Shown: positions 1 to 53,722, counted from the stretch's first letter. The stretch is DNA of 64,000 nucleotides from Candidatus Saccharimonadia bacterium (GCA_023253175.1 JALRHH010000001.1:236020-300019); one strand, 5' to 3'. Numbers and translations are program-made. Notes: generated from the letters alone by a model not told the origin.

Positions 1-199
1 TGCCGACGCGTCGTCCCGTAGGAGTTAGTTCATATTCACCGTTTTGATTTTTGACGACCAATCCAGTTGCAATCACTTTTTTCAGATGATAATCAAACAG
101 CTTATTTTCAATATCATCTGGCTTTAGGTCACTGAATCGCATACTCGGCGTCAGCGCCAAATTATAAACAATATTTTTCTGAATATAATGATCAAGCAT
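1..199 (-). CDS. wHTH regulator, N-terminal fragment (gene runs off the left edge)
   Basis: Reverse-strand ATG at 199..197 opens MLDHYIQKNIVYNLALTPSMRFSDLKPDDIENKLFDYHLKKVIATGLVVKNQNGEYELTPTGRRVG. This is collinear with the N-terminus of the 34734..35384 product (MIEHHIQRKILERL..LRFSELKPD..YHL). It is not in the ORF track because it is truncated. Confidence 0.55.
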   Translation of the reverse strand, partial: MLDHYIQKNIVYNLALTPSMRFSDLKPDDIENKLFDYHLKKVIATGLVVKNQNGEYELTPTGRRVG

Positions 200-219
200 G
201 CTGGTAGTATAGCCAAGGC

Positions 220-912
220 CTACGAAGCTGTATAGAGATTCATTACTGTGAAGAATATAGCGGGACGGATAACACGATCATAGTGCTCAAGATCGTCTTC
301 GGTCTGAAGAGAAAACGGCTCATCTACAAGTTTAGGAATAGCCGGATCAGTGAGCGAAGCGATTGTGTATAGCTCGCACACTGAAAGATCTAGATTGGAA
401 CCCAGTACAAGCGTATTAGGACTTACCTCCGGTATGTCTGCAAACATCTGCACGCATCTGCTACAAGGCGGCAGTGTTGCATGCATGTTCGGATTTGCGT
501 CATCATCAAAAGGGTCGGCGTAAACACTAATTCCGATAACCTTATTAAGCCCGCGTGACCTACCTTTTGCAATAGCAACTTGCTCGGCATGAAGATTCAG
601 CGAACTTGTGCCTGTTTCGGGCTTAACATTAAACCCATCAAATAGTCCGAATTGACCCAACTCAAAATTGAACATAACCGCACTTGCTCCAACATTATAG
701 TTTCGCCATGATAATGCGCGTCCAGAACTATCTTTTGCTCTATCGGCAGCATGTACCAGCTTAGACAAGGCTCCTACTGCTGTTCTTGCTTCTAGAGTTT
801 CTGGCGGTCCGGAGTAAATTTCTCCGCGTAGCGTGGGACTGTCGTGGACATATTCACCAGCACCCAGTGTCAAAAAAGCTGCAGGAACAGCGTCAATGAT
901 ATCGGTCTTCAT
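220..912 (-). CDS. cytidine/deoxycytidylate deaminase-fold protein (230 aa)
   Basis: Zinc-deaminase signature pair HAEQVAI (H-x-E) and PPCSRC (PCxxC). Ends 20 nt upstream of the wHTH ORF on the same strand. Confidence 0.7.
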   Translation of the reverse strand: MKTDIIDAVPAAFLTLGAGEYVHDSPTLRGEIYSGPPETLEARTAVGALSKLVHAADRAKDSSGRALSWRNYNVGASAVMFNFELGQFGLFDGFNVKPETGTSSLNLHAEQVAIAKGRSRGLNKVIGISVYADPFDDDANPNMHATLPPCSRCVQMFADIPEVSPNTLVLGSNLDLSVCELYTIASLTDPAIPKLVDEPFSLQTEDDLEHYDRVIRPAIFFTVMNLYTAS

Positions 913-981
913 GGCGCTATTAAAATAAAATATTGTCTACGGAGCAAGCATCAGCGGAATGACAGTGCAATAACATATGCA

Positions 982-1392
982 CTACTGTGCGCTTGGAATA
1001 TTCTCGCATCCACGTTTGATCAAAAAGGAAGCCGTTTTACTGTCGCCAGGGCCGTACCAACCATTGTCTACTTCGGTAATAAAGAGTACTGAGGTTTTGT
1101 GTGCATTGGCGTCTTTGGGCATGATGCGTACTGTATCTGTGTCACCGATTTTAATGAAGTCGATAACTGCGCCGTCACTCTCGTCGTAGGTTGTATTGTT
1201 TAGGCATCTACCGTTTGCTGTAAAGTTTTCTTTGACAGCCTGGATTGCACGATCTTGCTTTTCTTCTGCGTGCGAATAGACCATCGAAACAGCTATGCCG
1301 CCTACGCCAGCCGCAATCGCGTATCGAATGACAAAGCTTTCTGCTTGCTTGGCTCGTTCGACTGCATATTTCTTCAGACTAAATTCACTCAT
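982..1392 (-). CDS. hypothetical membrane-anchored protein
   Basis: ORF track gives 982..1416; the internal ATG at 1392 (MSEFSLKK..) is preferred. One hydrophobic helix (IRYAIAAGVGGIAVSMVY). No recognisable domain. Confidence 0.45.
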   Translation of the reverse strand: MSEFSLKKYAVERAKQAESFVIRYAIAAGVGGIAVSMVYSHAEEKQDRAIQAVKENFTANGRCLNNTTYDESDGAVIDFIKIGDTDTVRIMPKDANAHKTSVLFITEVDNGWYGPGDSKTASFLIKRGCENIPSAQ

Positions 1393-1623
1393 GAAAAATA
1401 ATAATGACACCCCCAAGAGCTAATTGCAAGAATCGCGCTACACGGTAATCATGCTCGAGCTTGTAATATGACAGTATGCGCTACACGCTTATTTTGAGTG
1501 CCCACTAAAGATACTCCCATAGTTAGTGGTTGATTATACGAACGACTTGTTACCTGATAAATTAAGAAGTAAGGCTTGCAGAATAATTACTTAGGATCAA
1601 TAATTATTCAAAAGAGGAAGATT

Positions 1624-2271
1624 ATGTCAGAAACATTTGTACCTAGGCCAGAATCAGCTCAAGAGCCGATATCTCTTGAGGAACTACTAGTTGACGCAGA
1701 TAACTATACTCAAGATGTATTAGAATACAGCATTATTCGATCTAAGAAGGATCTTATTCAGAACTGGCGCGCAGATGCCGAAAAGCTCACCGAAGATAGA
1801 CTCTTGCGTATTGTTGCTACAGAAGCTACATTTCCAGACGAAGAAACCATTGAGCTAATGCGTAGGCAGAAAGAAGAAGCGGACAAGGTATTGCGGGAAA
1901 AGTACAACATTAGCCAGTCGGCTGATCTTGATGTATTTTCTAAGATTGTCTCTGTTTTTGCCGCCAGTAGAGGTAATCAACTTGATAGTGAAGACAGGGC
2001 ACTAAGCCCTGGTGACATTGGTGAAAGCTTACCTAAATGTTTCGTAGCAGTCAGGGAGCTAGCGCGGCTCAGGCAACGGTCGTACGTAGTGGCGGGTAAT
2101 TATTTTTCTACAATATATCCATCTGTAAGTGCAGACAGTGATGTGACCGCACTCCTTTTTGAGGGGCGCCAAGAGGACACACATTGGCTCGAAAGAATTG
2201 CTGCCGATGAATTCTATGCGGACCTAAGGGGTGTAGCTATTGAGGATATTGATCAGTTTTATGAGGGGTAG
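1624..2271 (+). CDS. hypothetical protein
   Basis: ORF track gives 1576..2271; the ATG at 1624 (MSETFVPRP..) follows a GAGGAAG SD-like run. No recognisable motif. Confidence 0.5.
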   Translation: MSETFVPRPESAQEPISLEELLVDADNYTQDVLEYSIIRSKKDLIQNWRADAEKLTEDRLLRIVATEATFPDEETIELMRRQKEEADKVLREKYNISQSADLDVFSKIVSVFAASRGNQLDSEDRALSPGDIGESLPKCFVAVRELARLRQRSYVVAGNYFSTIYPSVSADSDVTALLFEGRQEDTHWLERIAADEFYADLRGVAIEDIDQFYEG

Positions 2272-2466
2272 GGGCGCCTTACATAGCCTCTCCTGTAAAC
2301 CCTGCTCGTAAGACAGGGCCTCGCTGCGCTCGCGCATTTCGTCATGCTCGATGTAAGACATCTGCGCGTGACTTCATTGGCGTCGAACCTCTGCTGCGCA
2401 GTATCGGTTCGAATCTAGTCATCCAGACAAGAAAAAACGACCTACCTATGGCAGATCGTTTCTTCA

Positions 2467-2543
2467 TGGCAGGACATACAGGACTTGTTTCGCAACCGCA
2501 CTTTGCCAATTCTCGACTTTAATCTACCGCTAGCTAAGGACAT
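2467..2543 (-). pseudogene. degenerate tRNA-Trp-like footprint, putative left attachment scar
   Basis: tggcagg-acat-acaggact-tgtttc-gcaacc here versus tggcagg-ggtg-acaggact-cgaacct-gcaacc at the tRNA-Trp 3' end (14278 onward). A D-arm-like ctaccgctagc lies further on. No acceptor stem is possible because AGGACAT is a direct repeat at 2471 and 2537. Confidence 0.4.
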
Positions 2544-2582
2544 ACTGCAACGCCACGCCTTAGCCTATGATTTAGAGTAAGC

Positions 2583-3008
2583 CTATTCAGCCAGTGATTG
2601 TAATAGTTTTAATTCGTGGACTAGTTGGTCGGGGTACTTTGCTAAGTCAATCTCAATCCAAGAGTTAAAAGCATTATGTTCATTTAGGGCTAAGCGTTCT
2701 CCGCTATAACAATCGTCGTCAAACCATAGAAAGGGTGTATTGAAGTCGATAGCCTCTGTTTTTGCTAATCCCCAAGTAACTGGCTTAAACTTCTCTAGAT
2801 ACGGTCGTAAATCATCATCAGTTGCTCGCAAAACGTATTCTATTGCGTGAGCTGTAGTGCCGTCCATACAGTGAGTAGTAAGCCAATACACCTCGAAGTT
2901 GTCTACTGCATACTTGATAAACTCGCTCGCACCAATTGCGAGGTTTTCCTCATTTGCTAGTAGGACACCGTCAATATCCAAGTACAGTCTAGGTTTCATA
3001 TTTACCAT
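2583..3008 (-). CDS. HAD-superfamily phosphatase-like protein (141 aa)
   Basis: N-terminal LYLDIDGVLL (DxDxV/T nucleophile motif) and a later acidic WFDDD motif. The small single-domain size is typical of phage/plasmid HAD proteins. Confidence 0.6.
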   Translation of the reverse strand: MVNMKPRLYLDIDGVLLANEENLAIGASEFIKYAVDNFEVYWLTTHCMDGTTAHAIEYVLRATDDDLRPYLEKFKPVTWGLAKTEAIDFNTPFLWFDDDCYSGERLALNEHNAFNSWIEIDLAKYPDQLVHELKLLQSLAE

Positions 3009-3031
3009 TATAAAGGCAGGGAGACACCCCC

Positions 3032-3239
3032 CCTACCTACTAAGTTTGCTTATTTTAGAACGACCATAAACGCACTACCTACCTACATTTTTGTCGCTAT
3101 CAAAAAATGGTTTGTTTTGCCCATTTCACCCAACAAAATCGAACAGGGGTGGACACAAAAATATCGCCCAACAATCAAAAAAGCTCACAACAGAGGTAGG
3201 TAGTTATAAGATTGTTGGATAAAATGCTAGTTTGTTGGG
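3032..3239. repeat. motif-dense intergenic region (CTACCTAC and CCCAACAA iterons in both orientations)
   Basis: CCTACCTAC at 3032..3040, CTACCTACCTAC at 3075..3086, inverted GGTAGGTAG at 3195..3203. CCCAACAA at 3129..3136 and 3167..3174, inverted TTGTTGG(G) at 3212..3218 and 3232..3239. Confidence 0.6.
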
Positions 3240-3240
3240 A

Positions 3241-3468
3241 CTATCTGCCTTGCTCATTACGAATATTCGTATTTGCAAACCCTCGTTTAGCCATAGCCTC
3301 GTCAAAAGTTTTGTCCATATAGAATAGGTCGCCGAGCCAGCCCATCAGTAAGTAGTTAGCACTAATACTTCGTCCGATTGCACCCTTGCCGTTGCCGAGA
3401 TACCAGCGGTTAATCGGTAGTATGAAACTACAGGCAGTTAGTATTTTGTATGTTTTTCGGTCTTTCAT
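3241..3468 (-). CDS. TM2-domain-like small membrane protein (75 aa)
   Basis: INRWYLGNGKGAIGRS...GWLGDLFYM resembles the TM2 pattern (h-R-F/W-Y-L-G ... W-h-h-D). Confidence 0.5.
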   Translation of the reverse strand: MKDRKTYKILTACSFILPINRWYLGNGKGAIGRSISANYLLMGWLGDLFYMDKTFDEAMAKRGFANTNIRNEQGR

Positions 3469-3511
3469 TTAAGCGTTCCTCGCTTTAGTTGATATGACCG
3501 TTGAAAATGCT

Positions 3512-3544
3512 CTAAATAAAAAGGGACACCGCCAACGGGTGTCT
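3512..3544 (-). terminator. intrinsic terminator downstream of the ATPase gene
   Basis: On the reverse strand: GACACC-CGTTGGC-GGTGTC hairpin followed by CCTTTTTATTTAG. Confidence 0.55.
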
Positions 3545-3710
3545 AGCCTGTTTGTTCCGCAATAAGTTTTAGCTTACTGTTTCGGGCGATGCCCCTTTCT
3601 AAAGCTAAAAATCATTACGGCAAAAAAAGCCGAGTGATGGTTATTGCGTATTAAACAAGCTAGACAATCTGATTATATCAAAAACAAGACAAATCTAATT
3701 TAGTAAGTGG

Positions 3711-5873
3711 CTATTTAGAGCCCAGGGTACTAACTCTATTGTATAAGTCCTTTAACTCGACATCGGACATATCGAGGATAGGCTCGTACATAAACGAGTT
3801 GATGTGTATATTCTGTGGCGTAATAAGATTAACTTTCTTGATAACGGCAATCTCTTCGTCTTTTGTAGGATTATCTGTAATGTACCTATCAGCTAGTTTA
3901 GCGGTTTGGTTTTTTGAGATTGACTCGACAAAAGCAGTATCGTTAATCTCGTTAATCATAAACTTCTCAGCCTTTAATCTAATTGCTACTGAAAGTACGA
4001 TTTTATTCTCAAGACCAAGAGAGCCGTTTTTGGATAGTAGAGTATCGGCGGTTTCCGTGAATAGGTCGGCAACAATCTTGTTCTCGTCAGATACTGTAAC
4101 GTCTTTGTTGAAGACGTCTTTGATAATATCTTTTACATTTTTAATGGTTATGGTTTCAGTATCTTTTTTGATATGTAAAGTAGAGGTTAGTAGGGTAAAG
4201 TCTGGGGCGTCCTCGCCTTTTGTGTACTCCACGATGTTGCGTACAAATGGTATTAGAGCTAATAGCTTAGCGTTCTCGGCTGTATTTTCTAGGAAATGCT
4301 TAAACGGATTGTTAATATACTCAGCCACAACTAGGTCGATACCGTCAGTCTTTTTATTGACCATTAGACAGTGCTTGTATGGTACGTATCGGCTCTGAAT
4401 TGTCCTAAAGAAGTCGAAGTTATGAGTTAGTATTATCTGGTAAAAGTTGTCTAGCTCAGCCGTGTCTTTTAAGTACTCGATAATTGCGTACTTATTTTTA
4501 TAGTCAAATGAGTCAGCGATATCATCAACGATTAAAAGTGTCTCCTCGCCTAAATCTTTCCTTGCCTCTATTTCAAACAGTACATTTAGTATGTAGAGTG
4601 CCTTTCGTTCGCCCGTACTCAGGACTTGTAGTAGCTCGTCTCGCTTGACGAGCTTTTTACTCTCCTCGTCTCTAAACTCGAAACTCAGTGAGGGAAGTAA
4701 GCCGTCTAGAATAACGTCGCTTTGATTTTCGACGCTCAATACAAACGGAACATTAAAGCGTGAGTTAAACACATCTACAACCTCAGCCCACCTAGTACGT
4801 TCTTGGTTGGCTTGCTCACGTATATCGTCTAATTCTTTCTTTGCGTCATTATGGGCTGTAATTAGGTTGTTAAAATCAGCTAGGCAAACCTTAAAGTAGT
4901 CTATCCAAATACGTTGCTTGAAGTAGTTGATATTAGCCAGTTCGGGTATAAGCTCTTTATGCTCGGTAATGTAATCCCTAAACTCTCGAACCTCGTTATT
5001 GCTAGTTAGTTTCTTATCTAACTTATCGAAAGCTTTACGAAGTTTCTCGTCTTTGAGTATCTCCTGTAGTTCGTCCTCGATAACTTTCTTTAGGTCAGCC
5101 TCAGAACTAATCTCACTTTTGGCAGTACCGTCAGAGAACGAGACAGTATGTGAGGCGTCAAAAAAGCCGTTTTGTACTAATGTTTTGGCGATTGTAGAGG
5201 CGTTGGTATGGTTGAATACGCCTTTACGAAAATATTTGGACTGTTCAACAAGTTCGTCATAGCGAGTTATATACTCGTTTAGGTCAGCTTGCACTGCCTT
5301 ATCCGACAGGAGCTTAACGACTTTTTCGTTAAAAAGTTTGCTGTACGAAACCTCGTTTAAAACAGGGTCTTTACCGTCGTTAACTTCTTTTTCAACACGC
5401 TGTACCGCCTCAAGAAACTTACCCTTAGTACTCATTATGACCTCGGATACTTCGTCGTCTATCCCTTTTGCTAGACCAGAGGGGGCTTTAAGTTTCTTTA
5501 CCAATTCGTCCTCTAGAGTTTTGATATTGAGCCAGATTTTGTCGTACTTATCCTTTAGCTCTTTATTTACCAATAATGTAGACGTTCTGCCAGAGGCGTA
5601 ATTTTCGTCGTATGGCTTTACTACGAAAACAGCACCAGAATCTAGCTCATTACCGTTTTCATCTGTTATCTCTCTGACCGTCTCACGCTCTGTAAAAATC
5701 ATATCTTTAGAGTCGTTACCGTCGCCGAAATCTCCAAAAGTCTTAGTAAATGACGTTTTCATCGAGCCATTAGTGGCGTAAATTGAGTACGTCTTTGTTT
5801 TATCGAAGTCAAACGTATGTTCAAGCTTCCTTATGCCGTAAGTGTTCTCTAGCTTGATGTTGAGCTTTTTCAT
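3711..5873 (-). CDS. RloC/PrrC-like (AAA_13-type) coiled-coil ABC ATPase, 720 aa
   Basis: Walker-A-like YATNGSMKTS. Long charged helical insert. ABC signature LSTGERKAL plus Walker B LLIVDDIADSFD plus ILTHNF (H-loop). C-terminal IPFVRNIVEY resembles the Arg-x3-Glu motif region of PrrC/RloC. No CxxC zinc hook. Divergent from the RM operon. Confidence 0.65.
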   Translation of the reverse strand: MKKLNIKLENTYGIRKLEHTFDFDKTKTYSIYATNGSMKTSFTKTFGDFGDGNDSKDMIFTERETVREITDENGNELDSGAVFVVKPYDENYASGRTSTLLVNKELKDKYDKIWLNIKTLEDELVKKLKAPSGLAKGIDDEVSEVIMSTKGKFLEAVQRVEKEVNDGKDPVLNEVSYSKLFNEKVVKLLSDKAVQADLNEYITRYDELVEQSKYFRKGVFNHTNASTIAKTLVQNGFFDASHTVSFSDGTAKSEISSEADLKKVIEDELQEILKDEKLRKAFDKLDKKLTSNNEVREFRDYITEHKELIPELANINYFKQRIWIDYFKVCLADFNNLITAHNDAKKELDDIREQANQERTRWAEVVDVFNSRFNVPFVLSVENQSDVILDGLLPSLSFEFRDEESKKLVKRDELLQVLSTGERKALYILNVLFEIEARKDLGEETLLIVDDIADSFDYKNKYAIIEYLKDTAELDNFYQIILTHNFDFFRTIQSRYVPYKHCLMVNKKTDGIDLVVAEYINNPFKHFLENTAENAKLLALIPFVRNIVEYTKGEDAPDFTLLTSTLHIKKDTETITIKNVKDIIKDVFNKDVTVSDENKIVADLFTETADTLLSKNGSLGLENKIVLSVAIRLKAEKFMINEINDTAFVESISKNQTAKLADRYITDNPTKDEEIAVIKKVNLITPQNIHINSFMYEPILDMSDVELKDLYNRVSTLGSK

Positions 5874-5983
5874 TAACTTTATTATACCCGATTTTGACGC
5901 CGTATTATTGTTATGCTTGAGCTTTTTGTGTAATATAATGGTAGGAAATGTTAAGTCAAAGGGTATGAGGAAAAATTAAAGAC

Positions 5984-7210
5984 GTGGACGACCTATTAAC
6001 TATTAGTGAAGCTTGCGACATCTTGAAAGTCCACCCTAACACACTTAGAAATTGGGACAACCAAGGCGTACTAAAGGCTAAGAAAATTGGGACAAAGGGC
6101 GTAAGGCGTTATTCAAAAGACGACTTGTCGAACTTTATTAACAAAACATCGGCTAGCTATCGACCACGGGTATTGGACTTATTCTCTGGTTGCGGTGGGC
6201 TTTCTTATGGTCTAGCTAAGGCTGGCTTTGATATTGTTGCTGGCGTTGATAATTGGGCAGACGCTTTAGTTACCTTTGAGCGTAACCACCCAGGAGCTAA
6301 ATCGGCACTTGTGGATTTGGGTAACTTTGACCCTGACGATATAGAAAAAATTGCTGGTTCTGATATAGACGTTGTTGTAGGTGGCCCGCCTTGCCAAGGC
6401 TTTTCTATCTCTGGTAAACGCAATCCTGACGACCCTCGAAATAAGCTCTACATAGGGTTTGTAGGTGTTGTAGCTCACTACAAACCAAAAGCCTTTATCT
6501 TGGAAAATGTACCTAATCTTATCTCTATGGCAGGGGGCAAGGTTAAAGACGAAATTATTAAAGAGTTTTCGGCACTAGGGTATAACGTTCAATACAGAGT
6601 GTTACTCGCCTCTGATTACGGAGTGCCCCAAAATCGTAAAAGGGTTGTGTTTGTAGGCGTGAGGGACGACTTAGAGTTTAATTATCCAGTCGCTACTTTT
6701 GCTGACGAAAAGCGTACTACGTCAGACGCAATTTCCGACCTTACGGAAGATAGTCTGGACGAGGGTGCTACCAATAAAAACCCAGCTCTTACTGAGTACC
6801 AGAAAATTATGCGTAAGAATACAGATAGAGTTTTTAATCACGAGATAAGTGAACACAGTGAGCAAACAGTATCTACTATCGCTCTCGTACCCGACGGTGG
6901 TAACTATAAAGATTTACCTGAGCACTTAAAGAATATCCGAAAACGTAATATTGCGTGGACACGCTTTGGTAGCTTTAAGCCGAGCAATACAATAGACACA
7001 GGGCATCGCCACCACTTCCACTACAAGTTTAACCGCATACCAACAGTAAGAGAGTCGGCAAGGCTACAATCTTTCCCTGACGACTTTATATTTTATGGCT
7101 CAAAGACAAGTCAATATAAACAAGTCGGTAATGCCGTGCCACCAATACTCGCAGAGGCTATTGGTCTTGAATTAAAGAAAACACTAGACTCTGCTAAAGG
7201 AGAGGCGTAA
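5984..7210 (+). CDS. DNA (cytosine-5) methyltransferase with N-terminal MerR/excisionase-type HTH
   Basis: GTG start. HTH LLTISEACDILKVHPNTLRNW. m5C motifs: FSGCGG (I), GGPPCQGFS (IV), ENV (VI), QNRKRVVFVG (VIII), GNAVPP (X). Confidence 0.9.
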   Translation: MDDLLTISEACDILKVHPNTLRNWDNQGVLKAKKIGTKGVRRYSKDDLSNFINKTSASYRPRVLDLFSGCGGLSYGLAKAGFDIVAGVDNWADALVTFERNHPGAKSALVDLGNFDPDDIEKIAGSDIDVVVGGPPCQGFSISGKRNPDDPRNKLYIGFVGVVAHYKPKAFILENVPNLISMAGGKVKDEIIKEFSALGYNVQYRVLLASDYGVPQNRKRVVFVGVRDDLEFNYPVATFADEKRTTSDAISDLTEDSLDEGATNKNPALTEYQKIMRKNTDRVFNHEISEHSEQTVSTIALVPDGGNYKDLPEHLKNIRKRNIAWTRFGSFKPSNTIDTGHRHHFHYKFNRIPTVRESARLQSFPDDFIFYGSKTSQYKQVGNAVPPILAEAIGLELKKTLDSAKGEA

Positions 7211-8640
7211 TGGCGGAGTATAAGATACCAGAGGAGTTTTACTACAGGATACACCACGCCCGTCCACGCTTTAAGAGCGACGTTGAGAGCGTACTTTTGT
7301 TTATGGCTGGCGAAATATCACGACTTGACCCAGCACCACGTAGCCCTTTTAGGGAGCAACTAAACTCTGCTATTAGGCTTTATCCAGGTAACGGTTCGGC
7401 AACTGAGAAAACTATAGACAACTGGCGAACTGAAATCTCTAGCCTCTTTGGTCTAATTGAACGTGAGGGAGAATTACAAAAAGCCGGACGTATGGCTTTC
7501 TTGCTTAGTGAGAACCAGGATTTAGTAGAGTTCTTTAGGTACTTCCTGTACTACTTCCAGTATCCAGGTGGACATTTGAAGTCTCAAGAGTCCCTAAAAA
7601 TGATTAACGCTGGCATAAAGTTTAAGCCTGCTAAGTACCTAATAGAGGTGTTGATTGAGGGTCAGAAACTAACCGAGGACGGCAAGTTCGGTATCACTAA
7701 AGCCGAGGCAACTCACTGTATCTTTAATGACCTACGTATTACAAGGGACGGTCAATCTCCTAAGATAACGGCGTCTCAAATAATAGCTCGTCAAAAAACG
7801 GGTGTTGAGTACGATAACGATGGCGATGTAACCCGATACGCAGGCGACATCTTAGACTATATGGAGCTAGCCGACCTTGCCCGTCAGCGTCCAAACTACA
7901 AGTACTACCTCAATATGGCTAACCTAGATGTGCTACAAGCTTTCGTATCTAGCGATAACTGGTTTAACTCATACGACGCTCTTTACGGTCAAAAAGACGT
8001 TACGCCTGCTGATGTAGCAGTCTACCTTGAGGATTGGTTCAAGTACGTTAATAACAAGCTCGACTCGACTATATTTGAGGCTAATATCCTCTCTATCATA
8101 GAGGACGCTAGCGAACAGACCACCACAACACCTAAGCAATCAGAGTTTATCGCCGAAGTGCTTGAAAGAATTAGAGCTAAACGAGCGTCTGAGCAGACAA
8201 TTAGGACTAAGGAGATTGGCGACGTTGGCGAGACTATCGTTATAGAACACGAAAAGAACCGCCTTACAAAACTAGACCGTACCGACTTGCTACACCTTAT
8301 CCAAAAGATACCAGAGATTTACGCTGTTGGTTATGACATCGGCTCATACGAGGGCGTAGGCACTACTCGACGCTTTATCGAAGTCAAGACAACCGTCAGT
8401 CGAGGCAAGATACACACCACTAACTTCCATATGACACCTAGTGAGTGGAGTGCGTCAGATACACTGGGTCAAACGTACTTTATCTACCGCCTAGCTATAT
8501 CGTCAGAAAGTGTATCGCTATTTGTAATTCAAGACCCAGTCGGTAAATACAAGCAAAGTCTAGTTGATATGATACCAAGGGACGGAGCTGACATTCGTTA
8601 CACAGAAAAATCAGGAGTATACGAGGAGTTATTGGTATGA
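7210..8640 (+). CDS. putative restriction endonuclease with C-terminal DUF3883-type PD-(D/E)xK domain
   Basis: C-terminus GDVGETIVIEHEKNRL..GYDIGSY..FIEVKTT..FHMTPSEW..YFIYRL matches the DUF3883 pattern (D...E-x-K). Start overlaps the M1 stop (TAATG) and stop overlaps the M2 start (ATGA). Confidence 0.6.
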   Translation: MAEYKIPEEFYYRIHHARPRFKSDVESVLLFMAGEISRLDPAPRSPFREQLNSAIRLYPGNGSATEKTIDNWRTEISSLFGLIEREGELQKAGRMAFLLSENQDLVEFFRYFLYYFQYPGGHLKSQESLKMINAGIKFKPAKYLIEVLIEGQKLTEDGKFGITKAEATHCIFNDLRITRDGQSPKITASQIIARQKTGVEYDNDGDVTRYAGDILDYMELADLARQRPNYKYYLNMANLDVLQAFVSSDNWFNSYDALYGQKDVTPADVAVYLEDWFKYVNNKLDSTIFEANILSIIEDASEQTTTTPKQSEFIAEVLERIRAKRASEQTIRTKEIGDVGETIVIEHEKNRLTKLDRTDLLHLIQKIPEIYAVGYDIGSYEGVGTTRRFIEVKTTVSRGKIHTTNFHMTPSEWSASDTLGQTYFIYRLAISSESVSLFVIQDPVGKYKQSLVDMIPRDGADIRYTEKSGVYEELLV

Positions 8641-9704
8641 GCAAAGTCTATAAGGTAGCGTCGTTTTTTACGGGGCTTGGTGGTATGGACTTGGGTGGCG
8701 AGGGCGATTTTGATTTTCTCGGGCAACACTACAAGAAAAATCCACTTAAAACAGTTTACGCTATGGACTTCGACAAGCCCATTTGCGACATCTACAACGC
8801 TAATTTTGGTATAGAGTGTCAGCATAAGGATATCAACTTAGTCTCTGCCGACGAGATACCAGACCACGACATATTAACGGGTGGTTTTCCTTGCCAGTCT
8901 TTCTCCGTAGTGGCACAAAATCCGAAACGTTTAGGCTACAAGGACGACAAAAAAGGTAAGCTATTTTTCGAGATGTGTCGGATACTCAAAGAGAAAAAAC
9001 CTGCTGTATTTGTTGCCGAAAATGTAAAGGGTCTCCTGTCAGCCAATAAGGGCGAGGCGTTTCCACTCGTGATACAGGAGTTTGAAAATGCTGGCTATCA
9101 CGTTAAATATAAGGTACTTAACGCCTCTCATTTTGGCGTCCCTCAAAAGCGTGAGCGTGTCTTTATTGTCGGCTTTAGAGATAAACAGGCTTATGACGCC
9201 TTTGAGTTCCCCGAGGCAGTAACGGTAGATAAGCCTCGTATTATCAAAGAGATTATCGACCCGGAGCATACTATTGAGGACAAGTATTATTTTAGTGAGC
9301 GAGCCGTTGAGGGTATGAAAGCCACTAAACACGCTAAGACTATGAACAAGGGACGAGCACAAGATGTTAATCTACCTAGCAATACCGTAGGAGCACACTT
9401 GGCTAAAGTGAGCCTCAATAGCACCGACCCCGTATTGTGTATTGACGGTCGTTACCGTATGTTTACTCCACGAGAAGTAGCCCGTATACAGTCGTTTCCC
9501 GAGTCGTTTAAGCTACCTGGCTCTAGGACTACAAACTACAAGGCTCTAGGAAACGCTGTAGCTCCTGTAGTTATGTGGCACGTTACTCAGAGCATAATCA
9601 CGGCTCTAAAGGCAGTAGAAAGCCCTAAAACAGCTCAAGTAACAGAACAGGACGCTGTAGAGATTGTGGACGAGGGGCTAAAGCTAGAGCCACTTGTTGC
9701 TTAG
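8637..9704 (+). CDS. DNA (cytosine-5) methyltransferase, second copy
   Basis: FFTGLGG (I), GGFPCQSFS (IV), ENVKGL (VI), QKRERVFIVG (VIII), GNAVAP (X). Confidence 0.9.
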   Translation: MSKVYKVASFFTGLGGMDLGGEGDFDFLGQHYKKNPLKTVYAMDFDKPICDIYNANFGIECQHKDINLVSADEIPDHDILTGGFPCQSFSVVAQNPKRLGYKDDKKGKLFFEMCRILKEKKPAVFVAENVKGLLSANKGEAFPLVIQEFENAGYHVKYKVLNASHFGVPQKRERVFIVGFRDKQAYDAFEFPEAVTVDKPRIIKEIIDPEHTIEDKYYFSERAVEGMKATKHAKTMNKGRAQDVNLPSNTVGAHLAKVSLNSTDPVLCIDGRYRMFTPREVARIQSFPESFKLPGSRTTNYKALGNAVAPVVMWHVTQSIITALKAVESPKTAQVTEQDAVEIVDEGLKLEPLVA

Positions 9705-10561
9705 GGCTTTAGTTTAGTACGTAGATTGCCACTTACGGCAGTCAAAGCTTTGAGAGCCGATTGTAACTCACTTTTTAGGTAAGTTACTTTTTGACCTTGA
9801 GTAGTACTGTCTAAGCCAAGATTAGCCGTATACTTTGCGTCGATAATACCGCCGTTGTGCTGTTCGATGTGGCGTTTCTCGAAAACAACCCTCATATCCT
9901 GTAAGTTTTGGCTATCCAAGCCCTCGAGTATTTCTATCCCTTGCTTATCTCTAAAGTATGCTTCTGACAGGCTGATGTTCTGAAAATTAATCTTTTTGTC
10001 TTTGCTAGCATAAAAACGACATAGGTTCTGAAACGCTATAACAACGTCATTGTATATTTGGCGTAAGCCCCTGTCTGTGTCTAGCTCTTTCTCTATAATG
10101 GCTAGGTTTGCGTCTAAAATCTTTACGTCCTCTGTACCGCAAAATGGACAGCGTGAGGCGATGCCGTAAATCTCGTATAAGCTCTCACAAGATGAGCAGA
10201 CCATATCGGTTGGTATCTCGGATTGTACTAGTACGGGTTGAGCGTCGTACCGTATTCTCGCTGGCTTAAACTTAACATTTTTAGAGCCTCTTAACCCACG
10301 AGCCAAGCTATTTTGTAGCTCTTTCATAACATCATATTTAATTTGGCGGAGACCCTCTTGAGTAGCATAGTCAAACTGTTCTGGTACGTTAAAATCTGGC
10401 AAACGACCACTCTTATTGCAATATGGACAGTGGATAGTGTCTGGAAAATCTTTGTCGACCGACCTAATACCAAACTTGATTGAGCAATCAGGACAAAGAC
10501 GGTGGGTGTAGCCCTTGCCGTCGGCTGGTATTGCTATCTCGTAATGCGACTTTAGTGCCAT
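9701..10561 (-). CDS. double zinc-ribbon protein with C-terminal R-x4-H (HEPN-like) motif
   Basis: CPDC..CPYC and CSSC..CPFC cysteine pairs. C-terminal helical region contains FEKRHIEQHNGG (R-x4-H). Convergent with M2, overlapping it by 4 nt. Confidence 0.55.
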   Translation of the reverse strand: MALKSHYEIAIPADGKGYTHRLCPDCSIKFGIRSVDKDFPDTIHCPYCNKSGRLPDFNVPEQFDYATQEGLRQIKYDVMKELQNSLARGLRGSKNVKFKPARIRYDAQPVLVQSEIPTDMVCSSCESLYEIYGIASRCPFCGTEDVKILDANLAIIEKELDTDRGLRQIYNDVVIAFQNLCRFYASKDKKINFQNISLSEAYFRDKQGIEILEGLDSQNLQDMRVVFEKRHIEQHNGGIIDAKYTANLGLDSTTQGQKVTYLKSELQSALKALTAVSGNLRTKLKP

Positions 10562-10605
10562 TAGTTATTACCCTCACAAGCTAGACTTATTATACAATAA
10601 TTAAA

Positions 10606-11157
10606 GTGAAAGACGATGTAATGAAAGATGACCGTAAGCGGTGGCATAATGAGGACGGATTAGAGTTTGTTACTCCTAGTCCTCGTCAAAATGGTATCGC
10701 CTCTAGCTATGGCATTATCGAGAGTACATACGATTATGACGACAAACTCTACACGCTGACTTATGACGAGGATATAAACAAGCTACTCATAAACCGCATT
10801 GGGATAAAGAGCTTTCAAATAAAAAATCCTGACGTAGAGCAAGTGTTTTTAGATGTTTTCACCAAGCTAAAAGAGGCGAACAAGTATAAAACCAAGTTTG
10901 ACCACGACTACGTTACTAAGACTGAGGTAGAGGTTAAAGCCAGCCAAGCTCACGTCGTCATAAACAACCTAAAAATACCCAAGCCACTCCGTAACATTAT
11001 GTTTAACTCGTCCGACGGTGGCAAAGTTCTGCACGTCCAAACAGTCGTAACTAAGCGATTAGCAATCAAAAATAATCTTGATATCAAAGCTACTAACGAG
11101 TGGCTAACTGACTTACTCCGTAAAGACCCTAAGTTGCGAGTACCAAAGACGTACTAA
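10606..11157 (+). CDS. hypothetical protein (183 aa)
   Basis: ORF only; no recognisable motif. Divergent from 9701..10561. Confidence 0.45.
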   Translation: MKDDVMKDDRKRWHNEDGLEFVTPSPRQNGIASSYGIIESTYDYDDKLYTLTYDEDINKLLINRIGIKSFQIKNPDVEQVFLDVFTKLKEANKYKTKFDHDYVTKTEVEVKASQAHVVINNLKIPKPLRNIMFNSSDGGKVLHVQTVVTKRLAIKNNLDIKATNEWLTDLLRKDPKLRVPKTY

Positions 11158-11204
11158 TAGCTACTAATTAACGTTAATAAACCGTCAGTCTATGGCGTTT
11201 TTAA

Positions 11205-11387
11205 GTGTACCTTGAGGCTATGAGCAATCCGTCAGCAAAACAAGTTGCCGAGCAAGTCAGTCCTACTGACCCAATGCTACGTTTGACTGAGTTACTGATA
11301 AGAATTGACCGCCGAGAAAATGTGATTAAAGACGAGAACGATGTTAATGATAACCGAGATACAGATAACACCAGTCAAGCCCAATAA
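11205..11387 (+). CDS. small hypothetical protein (60 aa)
   Basis: ORF only; acidic C-terminus; overlaps the SpoVG-like start. Could be a small DNA-binding/RDF-type protein, but nothing supports that. Confidence 0.3.
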   Translation: MYLEAMSNPSAKQVAEQVSPTDPMLRLTELLIRIDRRENVIKDENDVNDNRDTDNTSQAQ

Positions 11388-11649
11388 CGGTCTAATTGGT
11401 TTTGCTAGTTTTGTGCTTTATGGAGCTGTTTATTGTAGCTCTGTCGGCATATACACAAGACTAGACGGCGGTTATCGACTTACATACCCCACTAAGCAAG
11501 TTATGGGGCGTGATATGGGCATTTTCCACCCGATTAACAAAGAGCTAGGTTTAGAGATTGAAAAAGCGGTTACAGCCGTATACGACGATGTAATGAGGTT
11601 AAAAAATGCTAGATACGGTAGTGCTGTCGCTGGACATATCGGAGTTTAG
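11347..11649 (+). CDS. SpoVG-like nucleic-acid-binding protein
   Basis: MITEIQITPVKPNNGLIGFASFVL...YPTK...GIFHPINKELGLEIEKAV parallels SpoVG (MEITDVRL...AIASI...DIAHPIN). Confidence 0.6.
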   Translation: MITEIQITPVKPNNGLIGFASFVLYGAVYCSSVGIYTRLDGGYRLTYPTKQVMGRDMGIFHPINKELGLEIEKAVTAVYDDVMRLKNARYGSAVAGHIGV

Positions 11650-12745
11650 AATTATGTCGACCCACTACGGCAGGTGGTCGCCCGATATAACTAACTACAT
11701 TAAACCACCTTACGTAAAACTAGGAGGTCGGAAGTTTGCCGTCTCTACTCGAACACCTACACGAAACGACGAACTAAATGGTATCTACCTACCACGTCTC
11801 AAGCTTATTAAATCGACTAGGACTGGGGGTTACTCTACTCGGTTATACGTAGAGTTCTCAGCACCTAAAATCGTCTTTAATAATAACTTTGATGAGTTAG
11901 CCGACAGCGACTTCGATAACGTCTGTAAACAGCTCTCGAAAGCCCTGCGTCGCCTAGGTGTTGCCGTAGATAAAGAAACCATAAAGACAGCCCAAGTTAA
12001 TACCGTGCACTACAGCAAAAACGTGATTTTAACTGACGGCAAACTGGCTAAAATGTTCGTCAGAGAGCTAGCCAAGGCAAACATCTCGACACGTCGTCGT
12101 AGCAAGACTAAAACCTACGGCAACGACGGCGAGGCTATGTACTTTCATACAAGCAAGTGGGCGTTTGTCGCTTACGATAAACTCGCAGAGTTTCGACGCT
12201 CTCGAAATAATAAAAAGGAGCTACTGGAGAAAGACTACTATTGTCAGTTATCTCTCTTTGATGAGTTTACGCCAGCTACACCCTTTGAAGTCATACGACT
12301 TGAGGCTCGCTATACTGACCGTAGGACTATCAAAACCAACCTAAAGCGAGCTGGAGTAACATTTAGCGAGGAGCTGCCGTTTATTGAGCTATACTCCGAG
12401 GATACGGCAAAAAAGCTACTACTTTATGAGTTAAGCCAGTTAGAAACAGCAACACCCGATATTCTATCGACCGAGCGAGACTTAGACCGCTTTATTGACA
12501 ATTTACTAGCTAACCAAGCCAAGCCCGACCGTATCGTTTACGCCGTCGGTGTCAAAAAAATATTAGAGCAATATGGTAGTCGTGGGGCGAGGTCAAGGAT
12601 ACACGCTAGCTCTAGTCAATGGTCGAGACTAATAGCTAAAACAAACAGCCTTGGTTTCACTCGCCAAGATAACGATACGACAACCACGATACGACAAAGT
12701 ATCGAGGCGTTTCGTCGTGTCAAATTAACTAACTACAAGGAGTAA
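11606..12745 (+). CDS. Rep_trans / Phage_CRI-like rolling-circle replication initiator
   Basis: N-terminal MLDTVVLSLD. GEAMYFHTSKWAFVAYDK matches the Y-x-G-x3-S-x5-Y-D-K signature. FEVIRLEARY matches the R-h-E-h-R strand. Confidence 0.55.
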   Translation: MLDTVVLSLDISEFRIMSTHYGRWSPDITNYIKPPYVKLGGRKFAVSTRTPTRNDELNGIYLPRLKLIKSTRTGGYSTRLYVEFSAPKIVFNNNFDELADSDFDNVCKQLSKALRRLGVAVDKETIKTAQVNTVHYSKNVILTDGKLAKMFVRELAKANISTRRRSKTKTYGNDGEAMYFHTSKWAFVAYDKLAEFRRSRNNKKELLEKDYYCQLSLFDEFTPATPFEVIRLEARYTDRRTIKTNLKRAGVTFSEELPFIELYSEDTAKKLLLYELSQLETATPDILSTERDLDRFIDNLLANQAKPDRIVYAVGVKKILEQYGSRGARSRIHASSSQWSRLIAKTNSLGFTRQDNDTTTTIRQSIEAFRRVKLTNYKE

Positions 12746-12753
12746 ATAGTATA

Positions 12754-14289
12754 ATGAAAACAATGAAAAAAGATAGCGAGGTTAAACCACGAAAAGCGAT
12801 TATTTTCGCTCGGGTATCGACAGCTCGCCAAGAGAAAGAGGGCTTATCCCTCAAAGAGATACAACTACCTCTAGCTTACGAGTACGCTAAAAATCACAAT
12901 ATCGAGGTGGTCGCCGAGTACGCTATTAGCGAGACTGGTAGCGAGTACAAACTACGAGCCAAGTTCAACGATATGATTGCTTTCGTAAAACGTCGTAAGG
13001 ATATTACCGACATAATCTCGTTTAGGGTAGACCGTATCACTCGTAACTTTAAAGACGCTGTCGCTATCGACGACTTACGAACCAGCTACGGCAAGAACAT
13101 ACACTGCATTGACGACCGCTTAGTCTTGACCGAGGATAGTACATCAAACGACATCACTCAATGGGATATGAAAGTGCTTTTTGCCAAGCAGTTCCTCAAC
13201 CGTGTTAAAGAGGACGGTAATAATACCAAATACCGAAAGCTGGAGCGTGGCGAGTTGCCTTGGGGTACGCCGTATGGCTACAAGCACCACACTATCAGCC
13301 CTCAAAATAAAACTGTTATAGCCGAGGATTTTAAGGCTACTATCGTCCGAAAAATACACACTCTTTACTCGACTGGTTCTTACTCGTTAGAGACGCTAGC
13401 GAGAGCCATCAACAAAGAGTACGGCACTAAGTTTTATAAAAGTTCAATCCACCGTATTCTGACCGACAAGTTCTATATCGGCATTATGACCGATAAAAAA
13501 TCAGGGAAAGAATACCCTCATAACTACGAGCGTCTAGTCGGTTTTGATATGTTTGAGCTAAACCAGCAAATCATAGAGGGACACAATGTAAAACCTCGTA
13601 AATATGCTGGCATACCGTCAATCTACAGAGGTTTAATGCGTTGTAGCCATTGTGGTTGTACTATTACGTCAGAGTTAAAGAAAAAGACCCAAAAGAACGG
13701 TGTAAGACGTGAGTATATGTACTACCACTGTACCAACAAAAGGCGTCAGCACACCTCGCCTATCCAGTACATCAGCGAGAAAGAGTTAGACGGCGTGTTT
13801 AAGTCTCTGCTCGACAACTTTGCCAATATACCAAAGGACGAGATAGAACGTATCAAAGAGACGCTAAATAGCACTCACGACGCAAAGAATAAGTTTCAAG
13901 ACGACCAGCTTTCAGAGCTTAACGTCAGGCGGTCGCAACTGACGGCTCGTATCCGCAGGACATACGATATGCTTGCTGACGGTAGTATTACCCCAGAAGT
14001 TTATGAGGAAAACCGACAGCGTTACGAGGACGAGTTAAATGATGTTAAACGAAAAATCGACCGCTTAGATACAGCCGACAAAGAGTTCTGCATTACCGCC
14101 TCGTATCTGTTACGATTGTTTGAGAACGCTGGAAAAATCTACGAGGTTGCTGACGAGGACGAAAAACGGCAAATTATCGGTTTGATAAGCTCGAACCTCG
14201 AATTAGACAACAAAAACCTTGATTTCAATCTAAAAGAACCCTTCGCTACAGTCCTAAAACTGGCTAAGAGTTCTTTATGGCAGGGGTGA
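12754..14289 (+). CDS. large serine recombinase (integrase)
   Basis: Resolvase catalytic domain AIIFARVSTARQ...SFRVDRITRN, recombinase domain, zinc ribbon CSHCGC..YYHC, C-terminal coiled coil. Stop TGA at 14287..14289 lies inside the tRNA-Trp 3' end. Confidence 0.9.
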   Translation: MKTMKKDSEVKPRKAIIFARVSTARQEKEGLSLKEIQLPLAYEYAKNHNIEVVAEYAISETGSEYKLRAKFNDMIAFVKRRKDITDIISFRVDRITRNFKDAVAIDDLRTSYGKNIHCIDDRLVLTEDSTSNDITQWDMKVLFAKQFLNRVKEDGNNTKYRKLERGELPWGTPYGYKHHTISPQNKTVIAEDFKATIVRKIHTLYSTGSYSLETLARAINKEYGTKFYKSSIHRILTDKFYIGIMTDKKSGKEYPHNYERLVGFDMFELNQQIIEGHNVKPRKYAGIPSIYRGLMRCSHCGCTITSELKKKTQKNGVRREYMYYHCTNKRRQHTSPIQYISEKELDGVFKSLLDNFANIPKDEIERIKETLNSTHDAKNKFQDDQLSELNVRRSQLTARIRRTYDMLADGSITPEVYEENRQRYEDELNDVKRKIDRLDTADKEFCITASYLLRLFENAGKIYEVADEDEKRQIIGLISSNLELDNKNLDFNLKEPFATVLKLAKSSLWQG

Positions 14290-14353
14290 CAGGACTCGAA
14301 CCTGCAACCAACGGTTTTGGAGACCGCTACTCTACCAATTGAGCTACACCCCT
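14278..14353 (-). tRNA. trnW: tRNA-Trp (anticodon CCA), CCA-3' encoded
   Basis: Reverse strand AGGGGTG-TA-GCTC-AATTGGTA-GAGT-A-GCGGT-CTCCAAA-ACCGT-TGGTT-GCAGG-TTCGAGT-CCTGT-CACCCCT-G-CCA. All four stems pair. Confidence 0.9.
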
Positions 14354-33524: not shown

Positions 33525-33553
33525 TTGTTATTTAAGGAGTAATCAAGTATAAT
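33525..33553 (+). promoter_or_regulatory. rplJL promoter
   Basis: TTGTTA-17 nt-TATAAT. Confidence 0.55.
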
Positions 33554-33562
33554 TACTCCCAA

Positions 33563-33674
33563 GTTGCCAAAGACAGTGACTGACCATAGGTCTTAATTTG
33601 TCACCGAGGTACAAACAATCTCTTTTAGAGCGTTTGAACATCTTTGGAAACAGAGATGTTTTTTGTTTGGCAAC
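33563..33674 (+). promoter_or_regulatory. rplJ leader with long-range helix and terminator-like hairpin (L10-leader-type attenuator candidate)
   Basis: GTTGCCAAA 33563..33571 pairs with TTTGGCAAC 33666..33674. Hairpin AACATCT/AGATGTT (33637..33660) is followed by TTTTGTTT, which overlaps the 3' arm of the long helix. Confidence 0.4.
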
Positions 33675-53647: not shown

Positions 53648-53722
53648 TAGGGCGTCGCCAAGTGGTAAGGCACTGGTTTTTGGTACCAGCATTCGGGGGT
53701 TCGAATCCCTCCGCCCTAGCCA
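53648..53722 (+). tRNA. trnQ: tRNA-Gln (anticodon UUG), CCA-3' encoded
   Basis: TAGGGCG-TC-GCC-AAGTGGTAA-GGC-A-CTGGT-TTTTGGT-ACCAG-CATTC-GGGGG-TTCGAAT-CCCTC-CGCCCTA-G-CCA. The U1:A72 pair fits bacterial tRNA-Gln. Confidence 0.9.

Follow-up and report, generated by a model that had tools for sequence, protein, structure and literature searches.

The stretch of DNA considered here, the window, consists of 64,000 nt from a Candidatus Saccharimonadia bacterium (GCA_023253175.1 JALRHH010000001.1:236020-300019), with coordinates counted from the window's first letter. Window 2467-14284 very probably is an 11,811-bp mobile integrative element, one that has been inserted into the extreme 3′ end of a tRNA-Trp gene by the element's own large serine recombinase (LSR), that is, via attP × attB recombination. 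In the mechanism proposed, the LSR would recombine attP, located within the end of its own gene, with attB at the tRNA-Trp 3′ end. Crossover would take place within the sequence TGGCAGG, and the tRNA-Trp would be rebuilt with at most seven element-derived bases. The free circle would make a 545-aa LSR and the integrated copy instead a 511-aa form ending in WQG*. Following excision, the circle presumably would be copied by a Rep_trans/gpII-like initiator that the element also encodes.

ARAGORN calls the tRNA gene at issue as a minus-strand tRNA-Trp(cca), at 14278-14353, and Rfam concurs (70.4 bits). A preliminary description of this DNA had the 511-aa serine-recombinase open reading frame (ORF; 12754-14289) terminating inside of this tRNA, as indeed it does. 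The ORF's last four codons, TGG CAG GGG TGA (14278-14289), were said to be the antisense of the tRNA's CCA end, and they are the reverse complement of the CCA, the discriminator and the acceptor 3′ strand. That description also drew the element as spanning 2467-14353. Its start and its placement at the tRNA-Trp 3′ end both stand, but not its right end, as the element extends to 14284 at most.

The left boundary was mapped by comparing the window with related loci or contigs, which are designated here by L-numbers. Exact-protein look-ups returned the same locus in many assemblies along with the element in other contexts. Loci L020/L021 match window 6387-2467 at 99.6%, with unrelated genes (NUDIX, HAD) found beyond 2467. 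L025/L026, which are contigs of 646 kb and 667 kb from a different host, carry a 3.8-kb version of the element with a 94% identical backbone, and L106 carries an 8.2-kb version. No left end was found for L106 between its 75-aa gene and HAD gene, with a motif search locating that end 1.2 kb further out. Over four left junctions, identity starts exactly at TGGCAGGACATACAGG, preceded by four unrelated T-rich host arms. Independent insertions, that is, share the element and then diverge, confirming the boundary at 2467 as more than chance similarity, just as the preliminary description had proposed be checked. At three right junctions (window, L025 and L022), the LSR 3′ end, i.e., the P arm, plus TGGCAGGGG are held in common, followed by three different tRNA-Trp alleles. 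From the left boundary together with these right junctions, the sequence common to attL and attR therefore is only TGGCAGG (2467-2473 and 14278-14284), the copies of which are 11,811 bp apart. Over the four attL and three attR junctions, the arms swap as expected for hybrid attL and attR sites. The two ends are seen as well as a direct repeat, D9, in which 2460-2485 and 14271-14296 are identical at 21 of 26 positions. Contig ends falling inside the tRNA (L009, L010, L014) had been entertained as strain-level breakpoints and were dropped, as they do not coincide with the core.

How much of the tRNA the element provides follows from these same comparisons. The GGG TGA along with the rest of the acceptor strand is host DNA, since L025, whose host has a different tRNA-Trp allele that lacks the early stop, encodes a 99%-identical LSR which continues to 526 aa (WQGHVESNHDLRFWRPLY). 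The element had been described as supplying the functional 3′ end of the tRNA. This is the case for at most 7 nt (TGGCAGG) and, if the crossover predicted below holds, then probably for the discriminator plus CCA alone.

An empty site, which the preliminary description had suggested seeking in related genomes, is present on L105, a 117-kb contig from a related genome (74-84% nucleotide identity) that was found via a 90%-cluster member of a flanking oxidoreductase. To the right, L105 possesses the same synteny as the window (F420-type oxidoreductase, 388-aa membrane protein, AAA_33, YgjP, HisKA, secE and nusG), and its tRNA-Trp is unoccupied, without an LSR element. The 115 nt which directly follow that tRNA are collinear with window 2367-2466 (global score of 46 vs. 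14 ± 4.8 for dinucleotide shuffles, 0/1000, z = 6.7). A hairpin plus U-run ending just outside of the element can be read as the tRNA-Trp's own original terminator, displaced 11.8 kb by the element. With the terminator displaced, antisense transcription into the LSR gene could arise from the convergent tRNA promoter. A second ATGGCAG, at 2448, had been pointed to previously. It is there but carries no significance, as it is part of this terminator's stem, is one of 19 occurrences of that 7-mer in the window, and is missing from the homologous L105 flank. A scan of genome contigs with the neighbouring F420-type oxidoreductase as query turned up only distant homologues, from phyla that are unrelated, and yielded no empty site.

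As reconstructed, attB would run from the terminator-proximal flank through the CCA, discriminator and acceptor 3′ strand to the T-arm, with attP straddling the last LSR codons. The predicted attP junction is ...AGAGTTCTTTATGGCAGGACATACAGGAC... (in longer form, ...GCTAAGAGTTCTTTATGGCAGGACATACAGGACTTGTTTCGCAACC...) and the reconstructed attB junction is ...GATCGTTTCTTCATGGCAGGGGTGACAGGACTCGAACC.... Sites of the attB kind were reconstructed from window 2400-2466 plus 14278-14320, and from the L025 and L105 equivalents. The terminator-side arm of attB is merely T-rich, with a partial GTTC. Consensus sequences were obtained for 44 distinct tRNA arms (B′) and for 11 attP right arms (P′). For B′ this is TGGC....GGAtTCGAACC, with GGA at 15-17 and TCGAACC at 19-25, while for P′ there is gGAc at 15-18, TT at 22-23 and cG.aACc at 25-31. 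The attP right arm, that is, has an inner GGA(C) motif in the same position as does the tRNA T-arm, with the CGAACC-like motif about 5-6 bp further outward. For LI integrase, the outer motif of the attP half-site reportedly likewise lies about 5-6 bp beyond its attB position. The attP right arm thus would imitate the tRNA T-arm, with its outer motif shifted as for serine-integrase half-sites. Within the opposite, P arm, a ‘GT’ is conserved despite changing codons (Arg, Ser, Gly), a persistence which suggests constraint at the DNA level.

The preliminary description viewed 2467-2543 as a collinear but non-foldable tRNA-Trp-like footprint. The shared blocks (TGGCAGG, ACAGGACT and GCAACC), the absence of folding (z = +1.18; the true tRNA-Trp folds) and the mimicry of a tRNA all hold up. 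On sequence grounds, however, this is not a displaced piece of tRNA but, being element DNA from 2474 onward, the element's own attP arm, a tRNA mimic which also encodes an alternative protein tail. Particularly, the GTTTCGCAACCG of the window's attP recurs in attP sites of relatives which are aimed at other tRNAs, and therefore is a recombinase motif rather than a tRNA-Trp relic. A decayed whole tRNA, as based on a local match to the anticodon/D-arm part (score of 20, equalled by 22/2000 shuffles), was rejected given that same conservation in other-target attP sites.

Where within the core the crossover occurs was addressed by means of a dyad scan. Across 11 attP sites and 31 candidate centres, a single peak is seen at core position 5.5 (108/297, or 36%), with values elsewhere of about 24.5% and a next best of 30%; the window's attP itself provides 12/27 dyad matches. 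As this peak lies within the junction-defined 7-bp core, AG (2471-2472 / 14282-14283; tRNA positions 71-72) is the predicted crossover dinucleotide. AGTCCT (14250-14255) and AGGACT (2480-2485) had been considered as the site's inverted repeat as well. That pairing was rejected, since its centre, 4 bp to the left of TGG, falls at a place where independent insertions have differing host arms, which excludes a crossover there.

The LSR possesses Resolvase (PF00239, 2.8e-10), Recombinase (PF07508, 8.2e-10) and Zn_ribbon_recom (PF13408, 1.2e-9) domains along with a PHROG integrase match (1e-56). In an alignment of 121 homologues, A19-R20-V21-S22-T23 (ARVST, Ser22 being the nucleophile) is nearly invariant, while Cys297, Cys300 and Cys326 are invariant. 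Both its domains and its core site are those of large serine recombinases, and the protein presumably is active on attP × attB. It is remote from solved or named LSRs (3guv catalytic domain, 1e-8; CcrB, 73 bits vs. a cut-off of 900). By eye, its residues from about 380 to 450 form a charged, helical-looking stretch.

With attP inside of the LSR ORF, integration has consequences for the enzyme itself. When its two parts are joined at attP, the ORF runs past W509 and on through 2467-2580, for a total of 545 aa. The free circle therefore would encode this longer protein, with the end of the integrated form set instead by antisense tRNA (here WQG*), i.e., integration would swap a conserved tail for an antisense-tRNA translation. 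In comparison with L025, the tail's codons display 15 synonymous and four conservative non-synonymous changes, third positions account for 17 of the 22 nucleotide differences (p = 3e-5), and the stop is retained. Related open tails, with motif D-[LVIA]-F-x-N, are found at attL of L048, L077 and L106, and likewise in free forms. Judging from its substitutions, this 37-residue tail is under purifying selection. An unlikely alternative is that 2467-2580 is conserved as a site in the DNA or as a small gene in its own right, rather than as a C-terminal extension of the recombinase, with attP merely abutting the LSR gene. The first 31 or so nucleotides indeed appear clearly to be a protein-binding arm. 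Past nt 35, however, 16 of 21 differences are still at third codon positions (p = 7e-5), and the LSR-continuous frame is the sole open frame in 2467-2580. The tail furthermore lacks a start codon of its own, with the host flanks upstream of it varying between insertions, and free-form relatives are annotated with the long ORF, their tails being mutually conserved. A recombinase extension thus is preferred. Between Rep and LSR, L024 encodes a 64-aa HTH_17 protein (2490-2684) that could be an excisionase or a directionality factor. No equivalent small gene lies between Rep and LSR in the window's element, whose HTH_17 domain occurs only as fused to the first methylase.

The same arrangement is seen well beyond tRNA-Trp. 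The LSR has 244 homologues (E ≤ 1e-10), and those few with a source name are labelled Patescibacteria, also known as the candidate phyla radiation (CPR), with Saccharimonadales, Nomurabacteria and Pacebacteria among the labels. From such labels and from gene content, the host of the element is assigned, indirectly, to the small-genome Patescibacteria and probably is Saccharibacteria-like. Trp is present in the W509 column, which corresponds to the CCA codon, in 97 of the 121 aligned sequences. What follows that Trp is of two kinds, either antisense-tRNA translations (WLGMRDSNPR..., WQGHVESNHD...) or non-tRNA tails that are conserved among one another. In the DNA itself, an opposite-strand tRNA whose 3′ end is at the end of the LSR match is present at 54 of 83 related loci, with the LSR stop at or past the tRNA 3′ end in 52. 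In all 49 of these that were checked base by base, the tRNA's CCA is the conserved LSR Trp codon (TGG). Occupied tRNAs are those for Asn (32), Trp (8), His (6), Gln (5), Ser (1), Arg (1) and Thr (1). The remaining loci mostly are attP-type forms or contigs cut inside of a tRNA.

In textbook accounts, tRNA genes are targeted by tyrosine integrases. It could be posited, then, that a tyrosine integrase was responsible for integration, with the LSR a passenger, e.g., a resolvase for a Rep plasmid, given that tRNA 3′ ends are the classical target of those enzymes (Hudson et al. 2015, PMC4383910). This is hardly credible here. No tyrosine recombinase or Phage_integrase is found by Pfam among the element's ORFs, the block of identity is just 7 bp, and the LSR has the full architecture of its class rather than that of a small resolvase. 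In addition, the stop/Trp codon of the LSR is locked to the tRNA CCA, as just noted, over several tRNA species. Islander-type tRNA/tmRNA islands are similar to the element in terms of insertion at a tRNA 3′ end, regeneration of the tRNA and an adjacent integrase gene, with the element carrying defence cargo. They differ, however, in employing a tyrosine integrase and in possessing a longer displaced tRNA fragment. Here the direct repeat is 7 bp only, rather than the displaced fragment by which such islands are recognized, and the apparent fragment at the element's far end is no copy but a mimic in which the motif is shifted.

Another possibility is that the element is a fixed, immobile remnant, with the LSR/tRNA overlap the fossil of one ancient, vertically inherited insertion. 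Consistent with this, the identical occupied site is seen on contigs from several samples, and for precisely this element in this host strain the analysis found neither a circle junction (attP) nor an empty site. Quite improbable as the remnant idea is, several points also weigh against LSR-mediated insertion as proposed here, the just-stated lack of circle junction and strain-level empty site among them. An exact attP-junction search of IMG/VR gave no match. The crossover is placed by a dyad peak of modest height, at 36% vs. the background of about 24.5% and from 11 sequences, and attB sites are without dyad symmetry (3-5/27 matches), contrary to what is usual with serine integrases. A recombination directionality factor was not identified for the element, and assignment of the Rep is based on weak scores (Foldseek E ~1e-2, TM 0.47). 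What a remnant would not account for, on the other hand, are the 99.6% copies in an unrelated flank (L020/L021), the 94% identical backbone carried by a second host, whose tRNA-Trp allele differs, the intactness of all of the element's ORFs and the purifying selection on the LSR tail. Also at odds with immobility is L030, a relative present as a circular concatemer. Here three copies of a 5,208-bp unit stand in perfect tandem within the locus (1-13128), on an 18.8-kb contig, with an attP-type tail and long LSR ORF, and L030 probably represents a circular replicon of the LSR family. As for a check that had been suggested in the preliminary description, the element's genes were not found within a conserved core context among relatives. 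A mobile element that is inserted by its LSR thus remains the favored reading.

More tentatively, and with doubt predominating, these LSRs might be viewed as a Patescibacteria-wide clade that is specialized on tRNAs. The CCA/acceptor would serve as crossover core and the T-arm GGA..TTCGAACC as half-site, with hopping among Asn, Trp, His, Gln, Ser and Arg tRNAs. The intragenic attP would then be a built-in switch, the tail or its loss helping to set directionality or stability without, or besides, a separate directionality factor. Were this switch to exist, then the integrated copy would make a tail-less or scrambled enzyme, and would also face convergent read-through from the tRNA promoter. 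In L038, L041, L055, L057 and L097, just the 3′ 25-45 nt of a tRNA come after the LSR gene before the sequence becomes unrelated, a pattern that may reflect stacked insertions or tRNA fragments from other elements. L093 has attP-like right arms at 1897 and 11453, that is, at the LSR end and 9.6 kb upstream, which may be tandem elements. L108 (1305-2897) holds the only family LSR in IMG/VR, of 47% identity. That protein ends ...SSVCV*, with no TGG codon and no adjacent tRNA, and this variant probably has a different attachment site.

Serine integrases have been described as having no tRNA genes among their known targets (Hudson et al. 2015, PMC4383910), and the large LSR survey of Durrant et al. 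(PMC10083194) leaves tRNA unmentioned. Later surveys of islands and proviruses that were consulted report a preference of tyrosine integrases for RNA genes. Among tycheposons there are a few LSR-bearing elements, the sites of which are not described in the text consulted. With phiC31, Bxb1, A118/LI integrase, TP901-1, CcrB and XisF, the element shares a three-domain LSR, a short core, an int beside attP and, as seen on the right arms, an outward-shifted attP motif. Unlike the element, characterized LSRs have no known tRNA 3′-end target (Hudson et al. 2015, PMC4383910), and the element differs from them also in its attP within its own ORF, its attB without dyad symmetry and its low sequence similarity.

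Intragenic attP sites at a tRNA target are known from the SSV-type tyrosine integrases, or ‘suicidal integrases’ (PMC7253208). SSV1-type integrases are like the element in having attP in the integrase ORF, a tRNA target and a gene product that is altered upon integration. There, however, a tyrosine recombinase is split into two inactive halves, whereas the element's LSR would exchange its last ~36 residues (from codon 509 of 545), leaving every catalytic and DNA-binding domain intact. A further parallel is mycobacteriophage integration-dependent immunity, in which attP reportedly is inside of the repressor gene. Like the element, that system has an intragenic attP, a swapped C-terminus and free versus integrated isoforms, but with a repressor affected and a tyrosine recombinase acting, while here it is the recombinase itself that is affected. 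A coherent LSR clade that is locked base for base onto tRNA 3′ ends would fill this gap regarding LSRs at tRNA genes, and would add a type of mobile element to the poorly known CPR mobilome. Serine integrases are also sought for genome engineering. Those described here would be naturally retargetable, with short, well-defined sites and, possibly, a self-encoded isoform switch.

The preliminary description also had the element combining a rolling-circle Rep with defence cargo, and with this the gene content is in agreement (Table 1). The Rep matches Pfam PF05144 (24.9 bits vs. a gathering cut-off of 21.7) and PHROG 702, ‘replication protein’, and has an invariant Y190-D-K. Its AlphaFold model (pLDDT 89) gave, using Foldseek, RepDE and RepDS as the sole high-probability matches. 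These are staphylococcal rolling-circle initiators (4cwe, 4cwc), with probabilities of 0.98 and 0.91 and with the weak E and TM values already given. The element's Rep is like that of pT181/pC221 Rep_trans and filamentous gpII in terms of Pfam family, a probable resemblance to the RepDE/RepDS fold and an invariant Tyr in YDK. It differs in that its scores are very weak and in its coupling to an LSR and chromosomal integration, and no origin (dso) was identified, none having been searched for.

That a gpII-like Rep is involved raises the question of whether the element might be instead an integrated ssDNA (filamentous-type) prophage or phage satellite, with this Rep its phage replication protein. 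The Pfam Phage_CRI/G2P match together with the PHROG replication protein and integrase matches are in keeping with such an origin, which nonetheless is improbable. That is, no capsid, coat or morphogenesis gene, nor a Zot-like ATPase, was found among the element's genes in any of the family libraries scanned (including Pfam and PHROG), and the minimal relative is 3.8 kb in length with five ORFs only. In addition, the Rep is without a match in 50,697 phage records and 72,556 plasmid records, and IMG/VR contains just the single family LSR. An integrative rolling-circle replicon, rather than a prophage, therefore is how the element is treated here.

Table 1. Features of the element and its borders, in window coordinates.
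Feature	Position	Strand	Remarks	Basis
Host-flank terminator hairpin plus U-run	2431..2465	-	outside of element; -23.8 kcal/mol, z = -5.3	
attL core TGGCAGG	2467..2473	+	shared with attR; predicted crossover AG 2471-2472	four independent attL junctions, attP dyad peak
P′ arm, right half-site of attP	2467..2497	+	GGAC 2481-2484, TT 2488-2489, CGCAACC 2491-2497; putative T-arm mimic	
LSR tail ORF	2467..2580	+	37 codons plus TAA (WQDIQDLFRNRTLPILDFNLPLAKDILQRHALAYDLE*); in LSR frame only across attP	
141-aa accessory gene	2583..3008	-	no family match; missing from 3.8-kb relative L025	
75-aa backbone ORF	3241..3468	-	window 3028-3562 81% identical to L025; gene also in L020, L106, L107	
720-aa ABC/SMC-like ATPase, PADLOC candidate PDC-S46 (cargo)	3711..5873	-	E = 1.2e-269, residues 1-717 of 720; weak SMC_N match	
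Type II restriction-modification cargo	5984..9704	+	three genes in one operon	
HTH-fused C5 methylase	5984..7210	+	HTH_17; DNA_methylase match	
BpuJI-like endonuclease	7210..8640	+	BpuJI_N 1.2e-94 plus NOV_C	
Second C5 methylase	8637..9704	+	DNA_methylase match	
286-aa zinc-ribbon accessory protein	9701..10561	-	weak PDC-M14A match 3.4e-14; Lar-like match below cutoff	
183-aa ORF	10606..11157	+	no family match; missing from L025	
60-aa backbone ORF	11205..11387	+		
SpoVG-like 102-aa backbone protein	11341..11649	+	SpoVG 9e-6, below cut-off; conserved beside Rep in L024, L025, L022, L106	
379-aa replication initiator, Rep_trans/gpII (rolling-circle) kind	11606..12745	+		
Large serine recombinase (LSR)	12754..14289	+	511 aa integrated; element DNA to about W509/Q510, then host GGG TGA	
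P arm, left half-site of attP	14250..14277	+	inside LSR coding sequence; GTTC 14270-14273 mirrors GGAC 2481-2484 about predicted centre	
attR core TGGCAGG	14278..14284	+	predicted crossover dinucleotide AG 14282-14283	repeat D9, junction alignment, attP dyad scan
tRNA-Trp(cca)	14278..14353	-	intact host gene, attB target; host DNA (B′ arm) from ~14285 onward	ARAGORN, Rfam

The backbone that is common with the 3.8-kb relative consists of the 75-aa ORF, the 60-aa ORF, the SpoVG-like protein (which may bind nucleic acid), the 379-aa Rep and the LSR. The cargo regions, window 2586-3027 and 3563-11116, are missing from that relative, and other relatives carry different cargo in the same position (AAA_13, SLFN_AlbA_2, NUDIX and HAD genes). 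PDC-S46, one of the element's defence cargoes, belongs to a family whose anti-phage function is itself only candidate. DNA_methylase matches of the two C5 methylases are 1e-79 and 6e-77. At the position of the 183-aa ORF, L011, L022, L106 and L107 have a gene of similar size (164-180 aa), likened to it by size and place only. Defence systems, i.e., PDC-S46, restriction-modification and other candidates in relatives, would thus travel among reduced genomes on integrative rolling-circle replicons of 4-12 kb.

Beyond the element, window 200-2466 and L105 10824-12933 are dissimilar once past the ~120 nt next to the tRNA. The genes found there are 230-aa, 144-aa and 231-aa on the window side versus 181-aa, flavodoxin-like and 174-aa on the L105 side. 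With genes beside the tRNA-Trp differing in this manner, the neighbourhood therefore is a variable hotspot that goes beyond the LSR element. In L105, too, the final ~20 nt of the tRNA (TTCTGCGCACCCCTGCCA) recur at ~10985-11005, downstream of the LSR-free tRNA-Trp by about 160 nt. This repeated stretch resembles an att repeat or scar belonging to some other element, of the tyrosine type, and window 2316-2335, at the aligned position, may be a decayed copy of that repeat.

Further along, downstream of a secE-nusG-L11-L1 cluster, Rfam places a Ribosomal protein L10 leader at window 33549-33674 (63.5 bits), that is, ordinary host context. At 53648-53722 is an unoccupied tRNA-Gln(ttg), directly followed by a terminator-like hairpin and 88% identical to the L027 tRNA-Gln, which is occupied by a family LSR. 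This tRNA-Gln could serve as a potential attB for a sister element.

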